A stretch of DNA of 64,000 bases, taken from an uncultured Acidimicrobiales bacterium (GTDB lineage: Bacteria; Actinomycetota; Acidimicrobiia; Acidimicrobiales; Ilumatobacteraceae). Below are positions 17 through 30,886 of the stretch, in pieces; positions within the stretch are counted from its first letter, which is position 1, and every line of letters starts with the position of its first letter. The DNA is taken from contig CAWCFL010000016.1 of NCBI GenBank assembly GCA_963794805.1, positions 37,455 to 101,454 of the forward strand, in the 5' to 3' direction. The translations under genes and the position numbers were made by a program. The notes beneath the pieces were generated by a model that had not been told where the DNA came from, ran no database searches, and saw nothing but the letters and a program-made list of their open reading frames with translations.

Positions 17-1615
17 TCACTCGGTCGCGTGCAGCAGCCCGTAGACGATGCCCTCCTCGAGGGCGCGCCACGAAGCTTCGATGATGTTCGGGCTCACGCC
101 GATCGTGGTCCACGTGCGGTTGCCGTCGGTGGCGTCGATCAACACACGGGTGACGGCGCCTGTCGCCGTCGCCCCGTCGAGGATGCGCACCTTGTAGTCG
201 GTGAGGTGGATGCGGTCGAGCTGCGGATAGGTGCCGCGCAATGCGGCGCGCAGCGCCGAGTCGATCGCGTTGACCGGACCATTGCCTTCCGCGGTGTGCA
301 CGTGGCGCTGCTCGACGCCGCGCGCGTCGGGCGCCCACACCTTGACCGTCGCCTCGGTGGTGAATCCGGCGGTGGCGTGCTCGTCGGTGATCACGCGCAT
401 GCTCTCGACACGGAACATCTCCTGCTCCCACCCGCCGGCACGACGCATGAGCAGCTCCAACGACGCGTCCGCGGCCTCGAAGTGGTAGCCCTCGTGCTCC
501 AACCGCTTGAGGTCGTCGATCACCTCGTTCACGGCCGGGCCGTCGAGCGGCAGACCGAGCTCCTCGGCCTTGATCTGGATGGTCGCCCGGCCGGCCATCT
601 CGCTGACGACGAAGCGGGTGCCGTTCCCGACCAGCTCCGGATCGACGTGCTCGTAGGCGTCCTTCGCCCGCTTGATCGCGCTGACGTGCAGACCGGCCTT
701 GTGGGCGAACGCGCTCGCGCCGACGTACGGCGCCTGCGGGTTCAGCGGCCGGTTGAGCACCTCGGCCACGTGGTGGCTCACCGACGTCAGCCGCTCGAGA
801 CGACCCTCGGGCAGGCAGCGCAGACCGAGCTTGAGCTCCAGGTTGGGGATGACGGTGGTGAGGTTGCAGTTGCCGGTCCGCTCCCCCAGGCCGTTGAGCG
901 TGCCCTGCACATGACGTGCGCCGCCGCGCACCGCGGCCATCGAGTTGGCCACCGCGCAGCCGGTGTCGTCGTGGCAGTGGATGCCGATGATCACGTCGCT
1001 GCCGACGTGGCGGTGCACGTCGCCGACGATCTGCTCCACCTCGTGGGGCAACGACCCGCCGTTCGTGTCGCACAGCACGACGTGCGTCGCCCCGTTGACC
1101 ACCGCCGCTTCCAGTGCTCGCAGGGCGAACTCCGGGTTGCGCTTGAACCCGTCGAAGAAGTGCTCCATGTCGACGAGCACGCGCCGTCCGGCGCCGGTGA
1201 GGAAGCGCACGGAGTCGGCGATCATCGCCTCGCCCTCGTCGAGCGTGGTCTGCAGCGCCTCGAGCACGTGGTAGTCCCAGCTCTTGGCGACGATGCACAC
1301 CGCCGACGTGCCGGCGTCGAGCAGGTTGCGCAACGTCGCATCGTCGTCGCTGCGACCCTTCGGACGGCGGGTGCTGCCGAAGGCCACCATCGTGGAGGTC
1401 GACAGCTGCAGCTCGTGCTGGGCGCGCTGGAAGAACTCGATGTCCTTCGGGTTGGCCCCCGGCCAGCCACCCTCGATGTACTGCACGCCGAGGTGGTCGA
1501 GCTGCTCGGCGATGCGCAGCTTGTCGTCGACGGTGGCCGACACCCCCTCCACCTGCAAGCCGTCGCGCAAGGTGGTGTCGAAGACCTCGATCCGGTCGTC
1601 GGTCATGCTCGTCAC
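17..1615 (-). CDS. cimA: (R)-citramalate synthase / 2-isopropylmalate synthase family enzyme (LeuA/CimA), 532 aa
   Basis: Intact 532-aa ORF with HMGL-like barrel motifs (FDTTLRDG, HCHDDTGCAVANS, GLGERTGN) and a C-terminal LeuA-type regulatory domain. It is preceded by an Ile-codon leader peptide plus terminator, whereas a separate longer leuA with a Leu-codon leader lies at 29252. Assignment to the isoleucine (citramalate) branch is an inference from that regulation. Start is GTG at 1615 or ATG at 1606. Confidence 0.7.
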   Translation of the reverse strand: MTSMTDDRIEVFDTTLRDGLQVEGVSATVDDKLRIAEQLDHLGVQYIEGGWPGANPKDIEFFQRAQHELQLSTSTMVAFGSTRRPKGRSDDDATLRNLLDAGTSAVCIVAKSWDYHVLEALQTTLDEGEAMIADSVRFLTGAGRRVLVDMEHFFDGFKRNPEFALRALEAAVVNGATHVVLCDTNGGSLPHEVEQIVGDVHRHVGSDVIIGIHCHDDTGCAVANSMAAVRGGARHVQGTLNGLGERTGNCNLTTVIPNLELKLGLRCLPEGRLERLTSVSHHVAEVLNRPLNPQAPYVGASAFAHKAGLHVSAIKRAKDAYEHVDPELVGNGTRFVVSEMAGRATIQIKAEELGLPLDGPAVNEVIDDLKRLEHEGYHFEAADASLELLMRRAGGWEQEMFRVESMRVITDEHATAGFTTEATVKVWAPDARGVEQRHVHTAEGNGPVNAIDSALRAALRGTYPQLDRIHLTDYKVRILDGATATGAVTRVLIDATDGNRTWTTIGVSPNIIEASWRALEEGIVYGLLHATE

Positions 1616-1624
1616 TCGTTTCGT

Positions 1625-1659
1625 CTCGGGAAATGAAAGAGCCGCCCGGAGGGCGGCTC
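1625..1659 (-). terminator. Intrinsic terminator/attenuator hairpin (GAGCCGCCC-UCC-GGGCGGCUC) followed by UUUCAUUUCCC, 10-20 nt upstream of the cimA-like start
   Basis: Perfect 9-bp GC stem with a 3-nt loop, then a U-rich tract on the minus-strand transcript. The position between the Ile leader peptide and the structural gene fits a ribosome-mediated attenuator. Confidence 0.6.
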
Positions 1660-1689
1660 AGGTGCGCACGACGGCCGAGGCCGGGTGCG

Positions 1690-1725
1690 CTAGCGAATGA
1701 TGATGATGGTGTGGGTCGCCGTCAT
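1690..1725 (-). CDS. Leader peptide MTATHTIIIIR (11 codons, four consecutive Ile codons ATC ATC ATC ATT) of a transcription attenuator
   Basis: Read directly from the minus strand: ATG ACG GCG ACC CAC ACC ATC ATC ATC ATT CGC TAG. No SD. A TTGACG-N17-TTGAAT promoter-like element ends 9 nt upstream, so it is probably a leaderless transcript. A terminator hairpin follows ~30 nt downstream, just ahead of the cimA-like start. Confidence 0.6.
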   Translation of the reverse strand: MTATHTIIIIR

Positions 1726-2607
1726 GCGTCGACCATTCAACCGGAGTGCCGCCGCGCCGTCAACGGCAGATGTCCGGACTGTGCACAACATGTGCGCCGG
1801 CGGTGGACAGCCGGCGACGTTCTGGGGATTTCGGGGAACTTCGGTGGACAACCCTGGGGATTCGAAAAGACCACTTGACCTGGGATGATGCGGCGTCCAG
1901 AGTGTGCCGTGTACCGGAGAGCGCACGCCGACCGGGACCCGAGGAACGGTGCCGGAAGGCGGCACGGCCAGTAATGGTCGTGGCGGTGGACGGAGGGCCA
2001 ACCGGGTCCACGAGGCGCAGCGAGCCGGCACAGGGGACGATCCGTCCTCGCCGAGGAGGTCGTGGGCTCGCCCACGACGGAGGCGGCGGGGGGCTCGGGC
2101 AGGTGCCTCGGTGGCGACACCGCGGTGGCCGTCGGGCACAGCGGGTTCGCTGCACCGGCTCGCCGGGGTGGAGGGCTCGTGGCGTGGGAAGCGTGCCGGG
2201 CTCGCCCGGTCCGTGGAGCTCGCCGAACGTCGGGACGCGCCGTCCGGTTCGCCGGGTGGTGGCGCCGACAAACGGAATCGCCCGCCGGCTTGCGCCGACG
2301 GGCGATGTCATTGATCGGGCTTCAGGCTAACGCCGGCAGATCGATCAGTGGTGGATCTCCCCGTCTGATCCGCCCCGGGCGGCGCAGGACAGCGGCTTCG
2401 GCTGCGGCCCAGCGCCCCCGGGGCGTTTCGCTGTACAGCGGCACCACCAATGCCACCGCCGCGTAACCACCGGGCGCGCCAGTGCTTGGGTCCGTGGGCA
2501 TCGCCGACGCGCTGGCGCGTGACGGCGCGACCGCCAGGGAGCCCGTCACAGGAGGGGAGCGGCGAAAGCGAGCGCAGCGAGCGGACGCCAGTCCCCGACC
2601 ACCAGAA

Positions 2608-4573: not shown

Positions 4574-4687
4574 GGCCGGCGACGGTACCGCGCTGCCGGC
4601 GTCCAGGTCCTCACGCCCGCCCGGACGACGCCGGTCCACCCGCGTGCCGAGGCTGCGTTCGACCTGCCGCAAGTAGGGTGGCTGGCC

Positions 4688-5161
4688 ATGGCGACGACCC
4701 AGCTCTCACGCGCCGCGTACGAACGACTGCAGGCCGAGTTCGAGGACTTGACCACCCGCGGCCGCATCGAGGTGGCCCAGAAGATCGAGGCGGCCCGCCT
4801 GCTCGGCGACCTCAGCGAGAACGGCGACTACCACGCGGCGAAGGACGAGCAAGGCCACATGGAGGGCCGCATCCGCCACCTCGAGCACCTGCTGGAGACG
4901 TCGGAGATCATCGAAGGCTCCGACGACGGCAGCGTCGCCACCGGCAGCATCGTCACCATCGTCTACGAGGGCGACTCCCGGGACATGGCCGAGCGGTACC
5001 TCATCGGCCACATGGAGGAGAAGACCGGCGAGCTCGACGTCGTCAGCCCCAGCTCGCCACTCGGGTCGGCGCTGCTCGGCAAGCGCCCGGGCGCGACCGT
5101 CGAGTACCAGGCGCCGAACGGCACGTTGCGCGTCGAGCTCCTCGAGGTCGAGGCGTCCTGA
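4688..5161 (+). CDS. greA: Transcription elongation factor GreA
   Basis: 158-aa product [21 protein letters not shown]...[14 protein letters not shown]...[18 protein letters not shown]. The ORF track lists it as the tail of a longer spurious ORF. It is divergent from leuB. Confidence 0.85.
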
Positions 5162-29037: not shown

Positions 29038-29089
29038 GACGGCGCCGACGGGTTGACATCGCCGACCGGCACGGGCACACTGGTCGGCG

Positions 29090-29125
29090 ATGTCCCGCTC
29101 CGCCACGCTCCTTCTGCTTATGTAG
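29090..29125 (+). CDS. leuA leader peptide MSRSATLLLLM (four consecutive Leu codons CTC CTT CTG CTT)
   Basis: ATG TCC CGC TCC GCC ACG CTC CTT CTG CTT ATG TAG. TTGACA (29053) -N17- CACACT ends 8 nt upstream with no SD, so a leaderless transcript is likely. It is followed by a 10-bp perfect stem GGGCAAGCGC/GCGCTTGCCC (29125..29155) and then a terminator. Confidence 0.65.
   Translation: MSRSATLLLLM

Positions 29126-30886
<1,761 letters not shown>

Follow-up and report, generated by a model that had tools for sequence, protein, structure and literature searches.

Leader-peptide attenuation is a classical form of transcription control, exemplified by the enterobacterial trp, his, leu, thr, ilvGMEDA and ilvBN leaders, in which a short open reading frame (ORF) with codons for the end product, rare codons among them, precedes a terminator and the biosynthetic gene, and in which the ribosome serves as the sensor of charged transfer RNA (tRNA). 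In these leaders, the ORF is led by a Shine-Dalgarno sequence and the RNA is divided into regions 1 to 4, the 2:3 antiterminator overlapping the 3:4 terminator. Here, we describe an element that shares the former set of properties but not the latter. It lies upstream of cimA, a predicted citramalate synthase gene on a 64,000-nucleotide (nt) stretch of contig CAWCFL010000016.1 from an uncultured member of the Acidimicrobiales (Ilumatobacteraceae); this whole stretch is called the window below, all coordinates refer to it, and the cimA leader is on its minus strand. Our data suggest that the element is, in good probability, an isoleucine (Ile)-responsive, ribosome-mediated transcription attenuator of cimA. 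As judged from its sequence, it differs from the classical design by a hairpin that abuts the leader stop codon and by the absence of an antiterminator overlapping the terminator, and its ORF is predicted to be leaderless.

Several leaders described in actinobacteria resemble the element in other respects. In the ilvB1NC leader of Mycobacterium tuberculosis (PMC13236596) and the ilvB-II leader of Corynebacterium (PMC10272879), as here, an upstream ORF (uORF) rich in branched-chain amino acids carries four regulatory codons (LVVI in M. tuberculosis) and is followed by two hairpins and a U-tract; however, in both of these leaders, which act on ilvB in other lineages, the first structure and the terminator are mutually exclusive, whereas the two hairpins upstream of cimA coexist. 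In the published model for M. tuberculosis, the first hairpin is covered by a ribosome at the stop codon of the ilvB1 uORF and stays folded when the ribosome is stalled (PMC13236596), so that masking upon arrival at the stop, and not before, has a precedent there. The ilvB and LEU elements of Seliverstov et al. (2005, PMC1262725) likewise combine leader ORFs containing Ile, Val or Leu codons with a terminator and no obvious antiterminator, and the mechanism of the actinobacterial ilvB leaders that have a terminator and lack an antiterminator was left open there; citramalate is unmentioned in that study, and no Acidimicrobiia genome was sampled. In those elements, the codons overlap the terminator (ilvB) or pair with the Shine-Dalgarno box (LEU), whereas here they lie 34-45 nt upstream, with a separate hairpin between. 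The ilvB-type arrangement, in which a stalled ribosome covers the 5' arm of the terminator, was not found, the terminator lying 27-36 nt past the last Ile codon and beyond the ribosome footprint. Leaderless leader ORFs are known in Corynebacterium and mycobacteria (PMC10272879; PMC4633059; bioRxiv 10.1101/834739), and the polycysteine uORFs of mycobacteria (bioRxiv 10.1101/834739; PMC4633059) are, as here, leaderless short ORFs with consecutive end-product codons ahead of biosynthetic genes; in contrast to the element studied here, they act on translation without an intrinsic terminator (PMC13236596), and the amino acid and the genes differ.

No Rfam 15 family reached its gathering score anywhere in the window, and the best match over the element was an unrelated Pseudomonas small RNA at 19 bits (gathering score 43); the enterobacterial leader families of Rfam gave no match to the cimA element. 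The initial annotation of this DNA, made from the letters and their open reading frames, had placed the leader in no described family, and these searches agree with it, as do full-text literature searches, which returned no description of a cimA leader peptide. A T-box was considered and rejected, positions 1400-2500 giving no match even at E up to 10. In Geobacter, an ILE-specific T-box reportedly precedes the citramalate synthase gene and is said to have been used to infer that this LeuA-family gene is cimA and acts in Ile synthesis; that RNA, of roughly 200 nt, reportedly senses uncharged tRNA directly, whereas here a ribosome on the uORF would sense charged tRNA. Attenuation without an RNA antiterminator is known from pyrE and pyrBI, in which the ribosome occludes the terminator and the leader ORF ends within about 10 nt of it or runs through it; in the cimA leaders, 21-30 nt separate the stop codon from the terminator, a gap that a folded hairpin would bridge in the mechanism proposed below.

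The cimA leader and its conservation

The leader frame runs on the minus strand from an ATG at 1725 to a TAG at 1692-1690 and has Ile at codons 7-10 (Table 1). The pattern ATYATYATYATTNNNTAG matched once in the 64-kb window, with 0.00 matches expected from 100 shuffles. For comparison, 80 cimA loci of Acidimicrobiia were collected (69-87% protein identity, one genome per species), 78 of them with a usable upstream flank. A short frame with an Ile-rich run, one further codon and a stop, 63-210 nt ahead of cimA and followed by a GCCGCC...GGCGGC terminator, was present in 62 of these 78 loci, and most leader statistics below refer to these 62 orthologous leaders. A covariance model (R1) trained on 55 Ile-leader elements placed exactly one element in each of 67 of the 80 loci and in the window and nothing else in 536 kb, giving 68 elements in total. 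Most of them directly precede cimA; in four cases, the element precedes ilvE or leuB of the same cluster.

The codon run reads IIII in 47 of the 68 elements and is Ile-rich in the remainder (e.g. IIVI, GIII, AIII and IAII), so that the Ile run, on whose conservation in orthologous loci the initial annotation had staked its reading, is indeed kept. The stop codon is UAG in all 68 elements and the fourth codon of the run is ATT in 62; ATT accounts for only 1 of the 97 Ile codons in the four genes of the window that served as the codon-usage reference, and thus the run closes on a rare, wobble-read codon. Substitutions exchange whole codons. The N-terminal part of the leader peptide varies in both sequence and length (7-24 codons) among the orthologous loci, and for this reason the peptide product itself is unlikely to matter.

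A promoter precedes the frame. A TTGACG-like hexamer, a spacer of 17-18 nt and a -10-like hexamer (TTGAAT, TTGACT, CACAAT or GATACT) were found in 55 of the 62 leaders, and in 47 of them by a search that made no use of the frame. In this frame-independent search, 46 of 47 loci had an ATG or GTG 5-10 nt past the -10, and 51 of 52 such starts shared the frame of the Ile run, which, together with the whole-codon substitutions, argues that the leader ORF is under coding constraint and has a usable start, and hence is predicted to be translated. Because the conserved promoter puts this start codon at the expected start of transcription, the arrangement implies a leaderless or nearly leaderless messenger RNA (mRNA).

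Two hairpins follow. A terminator scan returned a sole minus-strand site, with a stem at 1659-1639 (9 pairs, 8 of them G-C), a loop of 3 nt and the tail TTTCATTTCC. A 63-nt segment reaching from the UAG to the U-tract has a folding energy of -38.7 kcal/mol; shuffled versions gave -21.5 +/- 3.1 (z = -5.6), and none of 200 folded as well. A fold with two hairpins makes up 95% of the ensemble. The first of these hairpins, hairpin A, has the A or the G of the UAG as its first base in all 62 leaders. Its structure is kept while its sequence is not, with compensatory changes in 6 of 7 modelled pairs; its cells are 96% paired, against 35-54% (whole structure) when the partners are slid. The intrinsic terminator is also conserved in 62 of 62 leaders, where it begins 19-30 nt past the stop; its core GCCGCC/GGCGGC never varies, and there is covariation in the lower stem. 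No base is shared between hairpin A and the terminator, the two coexist, and the linker between them measures 0-6 nt in all 62 Ile elements. The initial annotation had correctly read the 11-codon ORF with its four Ile codons and a 9-base-pair (bp) GC hairpin with U-tract (1659-1630 in the terminator scan). Its picture of a single hairpin between the ORF and cimA holds for the terminator but overlooked the 27-nt hairpin at 1690-1664, and the 65-nt gap that it gave from the ORF to the cimA start is in fact 83 nt (ATG 1606) or 74 nt (GTG 1615).

The protein encoded by cimA scores 683.6 bits against the NCBIfam equivalog TIGR00977 (cut-off 450), and all 2-isopropylmalate synthase models stay far under their cut-offs, in keeping with the earlier assignment of a cimA-like gene. 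It has the Pfam domains HMGL-like, HCS_D2 and LeuA_dimer, and its closest relatives (84-93% identical) come from metagenome-assembled genomes of Ilumatobacteraceae and other Acidimicrobiia. No close solved or characterised relative was retrieved, and the best matches in the PDB were LeuA and homocitrate synthases (E about 1e-45). The enzyme is expected to serve isoleucine synthesis via the citramalate route.

Table 1. Positions of the leader elements and of the genes around them in the window
Feature	Coordinates	Strand	Basis or remark
Leader ORF MTATHTIIIIR, 11 codons, stop UAG	1690..1725	-	Translation; conserved as variable N-terminus, Ile-rich run, one codon and UAG
Regulatory codons ATC ATC ATC ATT (Ile x4)	1696..1707	-	Last codon is the rare ATT
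Promoter -35 hexamer TTGACG	1758..1763	-	Sequence read and ortholog comparison
Promoter -10 hexamer TTGAAT	1735..1740	-	17 nt past the -35; 9 nt ahead of the leader ATG 1725
Hairpin A, 27-nt stem-loop with bulge; proposed ribosome-position sensor	1664..1690	-	First paired base is the G of UAG
Linker ACCU, 4 nt, hairpin A to terminator	1660..1663	-	Fold
Terminator hairpin GAGCCGCCC-UCC-GGGCGGCUC, 9 bp	1639..1659	-	Terminator scan
Interrupted U-tract UUUCAUUUC	1630..1638	-	Terminator scan and ortholog comparison
cimA, TIGR00977 citramalate synthase; alternative GTG start 1615	17..1606	-	Profile match
Leu sister leader ORF MSRSATLLLLM-stop (CTC CTT CTG CTT, Leu x4)	29090..29125	+	Covariance model R1, 21.4 bits, E about 0.007
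Sister promoter TTGACA (29053-29058), 17 nt, CACACT (29076-29081)	29053..29081	+	Sequence read
Sister hairpin (29125-29155), 3-nt linker, terminator (29159-29180), U-tract (29181-29192)	29125..29192	+	Fold, z = -4.8
leuA	29252-30886	+	TIGR00970, 785.6 bits, cut-off 697.4
ilvE	3525-2611	-	Upstream of cimA
leuB	4576-3587	-	Upstream of cimA

The leuA counterpart and leaders of mixed operons

The second match of the covariance model in the window, at 29108-29189, is upstream of the real leuA, 27 kb from cimA, where four Leu codons take the place of the Ile run. The 10-bp hairpin of this sister element has the UAG running into its stem, and the ORF length of 11 codons and the promoter type are those of the Ile leader. 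CTT, which appears twice in its run, is used for 0 of the 133 Leu codons in the four genes of the window, so that this run, too, closes on a rare, wobble-read codon. The sister element has no Rfam match either, and a strict scan of the window for a stop, a hairpin and a terminator was passed by the Ile element only. With leuA standing behind a leader of its own, the regulation of cimA separately from leuA, as proposed in the initial annotation, is well supported. The leucine version also occurs in other leuA loci: in a set of 80 metagenomic leuA loci, a leader containing LLL was found in 51, and 49 of these 51 have the same layout. In these 49 elements, the distance from the end of the stop to the start of the hairpin is -3 to +3 nt (-2 to +1 in 47 of the 49), and the linker to the terminator is 0 nt long in 30.

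Where cimA sits in a tight operon, both the position and the codons of the leader change. Ahead of leuB-ilvE-cimA, we found leaders with IIIIR (locus L074, 411-525), with MSCPRVVTAIG before the stop (L078, about 240-352) and with MSCLAQVIAIG before the stop (L080, about 190-301). Ahead of ilvE-cimA, the leader MFDASHQVLNIV, ending in a stop, has the run VLNIV (L066, 1431-1532), and MTALHLRNGLILT, again followed by a stop, has the run GLILT ahead of an operon of two LeuA-family genes (cimA-like and leuA-like) and leuB, in a genome with a CimA of only 53% identity (L172, 2335-2460). By sequence comparison, then, the regulatory codons correspond to the role of the genes behind them. Such a match between codon run and operon is what amino-acid-specific, ribosome-mediated control predicts, and no other observation argues more strongly for a role of the cimA product in isoleucine synthesis. 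The cimA version appears to be confined to Acidimicrobiia and near relatives, and the general layout appears to reach further.

A further possible pairing was noticed in many leuA leaders (L092-L171, e.g. L101, L119, L128 and L134), the terminators of which have the form CCUCCUG...CAGGAGG, with a 5' arm that mimics the Leu run CUCCUCCUU and a 3' arm that is Shine-Dalgarno-like. The Leu run could therefore pair with the terminator 3' arm in these leaders, recalling the base stem of the 'LEU element' (Seliverstov et al. 2005). As a general rule, pairing of the codon run with the terminator 3' arm was rejected, since it is plausible for many Leu elements (CUCCUCCUU versus AGGAGG) but impossible for the Ile elements.

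From ribosome position to termination

How the position of the ribosome would be transmitted to the terminator is a separate matter. We looked for an antiterminator by minimum free energy folds with a terminator arm blocked, by a search for an outer helix around hairpin A and by comparing cognate with non-cognate duplex energies for each pair of segments, and we modelled the effect of the ribosome by masking the RNA as if it were occupied on the Ile codons or on the stop codon. With either terminator arm kept unpaired, no alternative helix and hence no hidden partner emerged. An extension of hairpin A by an outer helix between the last codons and the foot of the terminator was rejected (-0.97 kcal/mol for cognate and -1.35 for non-cognate pairs, permutation p = 1.0). 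So was the pairing of the upstream ORF, the Ile run, the X-stop segment, the 5' arm, loop or 3' arm of hairpin A or the linker with the arms or loop of the terminator, the U-tract or the downstream RNA, for which there was no useful cognate-specific signal; the only significant cognate duplex signal, between the 5' arm of hairpin A and the U-tract, is worth 0.45 kcal/mol. Stop read-through or frameshifting that carries ribosomes past the terminator was also discarded, since openness hardly differs between the three frames (56, 58 and 60 of 62), and in four loci frame 0 is interrupted by stop codons ahead of the terminator. Masked for a ribosome on the Ile codons, the RNA gave a mean terminator pair probability of 0.98, and masked for one on the stop codon, 0.97. 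These nearly equal probabilities, together with the lack of an alternative pairing, indicate that in such models RNA pairing alone is unable to explain regulation. The initial annotation had called the locus a textbook architecture, and this part of it fails: no antiterminator overlaps the terminator, which is predicted equally well in both ribosome states. What it had said of function and specificity fares better, being supported by the conservation of the codons and by their tracking of the downstream genes.

As immediate adjacency is the only conserved relation between hairpin A and the terminator, we infer a steric relay, and we put forward hairpin A as the transmitting step with considerable caution. 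Transcription from the sigma-70-type promoter would start at or within a few bases of the ATG of the leaderless 11-codon ORF, and the position of the translating ribosome would then decide whether hairpin A is folded. As known from footprints and from the spacing of frameshift stimulators, the ribosome has its mRNA entrance and helicase at about +11/+12. When the A site is occupied by the last Ile codon, hairpin A would have its first paired base at about +11/+12 from the first P-site base, that is, at the mRNA entrance; by this geometry, the hairpin should stay intact as long as any Ile codon awaits decoding. A ribosome that reaches the UAG would unwind at least 6 bp from the 5' arm. Under starvation, the stalled ribosome and the folded hairpin A would hold the 5' foot of the terminator within a few nt of the ribosome, and polymerase, hairpin and ribosome would clash before the lower terminator stem could close in the RNA exit channel, leading to read-through into cimA. 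When Ile-tRNA is plentiful, hairpin A would be melted by the ribosome, giving about 15 nt of single-strand slack, or the ribosome would be released, and the terminator would fold and stop transcription. The leader would thus be OFF when untranslated, OFF when the cell is fed and ON when it is starved. Such a relay would account for a hairpin A that is kept in structure and not in sequence, for its abutting the stop, for the short linker and for the rare last codon. It is possible, though we hold this loosely, that the elements before cimA, leuA, ilvE and leuB in Acidimicrobiia and their relatives form an undescribed class of attenuators without an RNA antiterminator, in which the hairpin between stop and terminator works as a mechanical relay.

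Several observations weigh against this interpretation of the locus. The link from hairpin A to termination is drawn from geometry, and to our knowledge it has no precedent as a steric link. The terminator probabilities given above are nearly the same in both ribosome states, the blocked-arm folds and the outer-helix and duplex tests revealed no antiterminator exclusive with the terminator, and the dominance of the two-hairpin fold also counts against it. A stall at the first Ile codon would leave about 8 nt between the ribosome and hairpin A, and linkers of 5-7 nt in a few elements of the Ile and Leu sets are less tolerable for a purely steric model. The element was not found within the fetched flank in 11 of the 78 loci with a usable flank, and the Ile leader was absent from the cimA loci checked in Nitriliruptoraceae, Thermoleophilales and Adlercreutzia. 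Finally, the substrate of the cimA enzyme is read from family membership and from the leader only.

Four other explanations deserve consideration. The first is classical attenuation with an antiterminator that escaped our tests, such as a pseudoknot, a pairing stabilised by a protein (e.g. NusA) or a kinetic intermediate of co-transcriptional folding. This is the mode of all well-studied leader-peptide attenuators, and it gains from the C/U-rich loops of hairpin A and the G-rich 3' arm of the terminator, and from Corynebacterium ilvB-II, where the first hairpin uses its loop to pair with the lower terminator stem on the 3' side (PMC10272879). In the cimA leaders, however, no leader segment gave a specific signal against any terminator segment (-4.58 kcal/mol for cognate and -4.64 for non-cognate pairs of hairpin A loop and terminator 3' arm), no alternative helix formed when either terminator arm was forced unpaired, and the two-hairpin fold prevails in the ensemble; we consider a missed antiterminator somewhat unlikely.

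A second explanation turns the default around. In translation-activated termination, the folded hairpin A would weaken the terminator, sterically or by removing single-strand RNA needed by NusA or NusG, and cimA would be ON until a ribosome reached the UAG. The same geometry, with hairpin A abutting both the stop and the terminator, fits it, and so do the U-tracts, which are interrupted, so that termination is probably factor-dependent. On the other hand, it predicts read-through whenever the leader is untranslated, unlike classical attenuators, and it is without precedent, and we regard it as unlikely. Less probable again would be a hairpin A that is a mere RNA polymerase pause hairpin synchronising leaderless translation, with control exerted by Rho, through the stability of the mRNA or through a stalled ribosome that shields the 5' end. 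A leaderless ORF of 36 nt requires the polymerase to wait, and the 1:2 hairpin of the Escherichia coli trp leader acts as a pause hairpin in this way; however, a pause alone yields no difference in terminator formation between starved and fed cells, and the very short linker between hairpin A and the terminator is left unexplained, which makes this reading very unlikely in our view. The suggestion that there is no regulator at all, only a frame that is open by chance and two hairpins that terminate the upstream leuB-ilvE transcript in tandem, draws on the abundance of open frames in GC-rich DNA and on the tandem hairpin terminators described in actinobacteria, but it is close to refuted by the conserved promoter between ilvE and the hairpins, by the conservation of the Ile run, the frame, the UAG and the start codon alike, and by the Leu version before leuA and the mixed versions before mixed operons, given a chance expectation of 0.00.

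Surroundings of the locus and implications

The gene order leuB-ilvE-cimA is kept in relatives. Between ilvE and the leader promoter is a spacer of about 850 nt (1765-2610), the counterparts of which in the closest relatives measure about 750-1400 nt. Protein-coding content was considered for this spacer and rejected, as no ORF in it had a Pfam match and its similarity to relatives was equal across the reading frames; the latter points to conservation at the DNA level, and the spacer has the appearance of conserved non-coding DNA. At about 1780-1851 on the minus strand, just ahead of the leader promoter, the DnaA-box-like 9-mers TTATCCACA, TTGTCCACC and TTGTGCACA form a conserved cluster. In loci L001-L077, such a cluster lies 80-200 nt upstream of the Ile run, often beside a short AT-rich stretch ggtatttttgaa; there, boxes with no more than one mismatch reach a density of 4.8 per kb, compared with 0.22 per kb in the rest of the loci, and 27 of 63 loci have at least two. 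The window itself has only about three DnaA-like boxes, and its GC skew is uninformative. The cluster could reflect control of the cimA promoter by DnaA or another transcription factor, or it could be an origin-like region. In addition, leuB has a conserved promoter-like region of its own (…aaggctatc…ctacgatgg…) with the ATG within about 10 nt (4577-4880 on the minus strand of the window, and L022-L067), which suggests that the leuB mRNA is leaderless and without an attenuator and that the gene diverges from a conserved gene on the opposite strand.

An overlapping antiterminator is held essential by textbooks; none was found here, yet a strict geometry is conserved across at least two gene families. 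The element may therefore provide a compact system of about 100 nt for asking whether a ribosome controls an intrinsic terminator sterically via an intervening hairpin, a question that ties in with work on ribosome-polymerase coupling. It is also a conserved cis-regulatory motif that is absent from Rfam, and because the codon run names the amino acid sensed, the motif could help to annotate the regulons of branched-chain amino acids in metagenome-assembled genomes. For the Acidimicrobiia, which are abundant in freshwater and soil and are poorly cultured, one and the same genome has an Ile leader on cimA and a Leu leader on leuA, and this offers independent, sequence-based support for the view that their TIGR00977 paralogue of LeuA serves isoleucine synthesis by the citramalate route.

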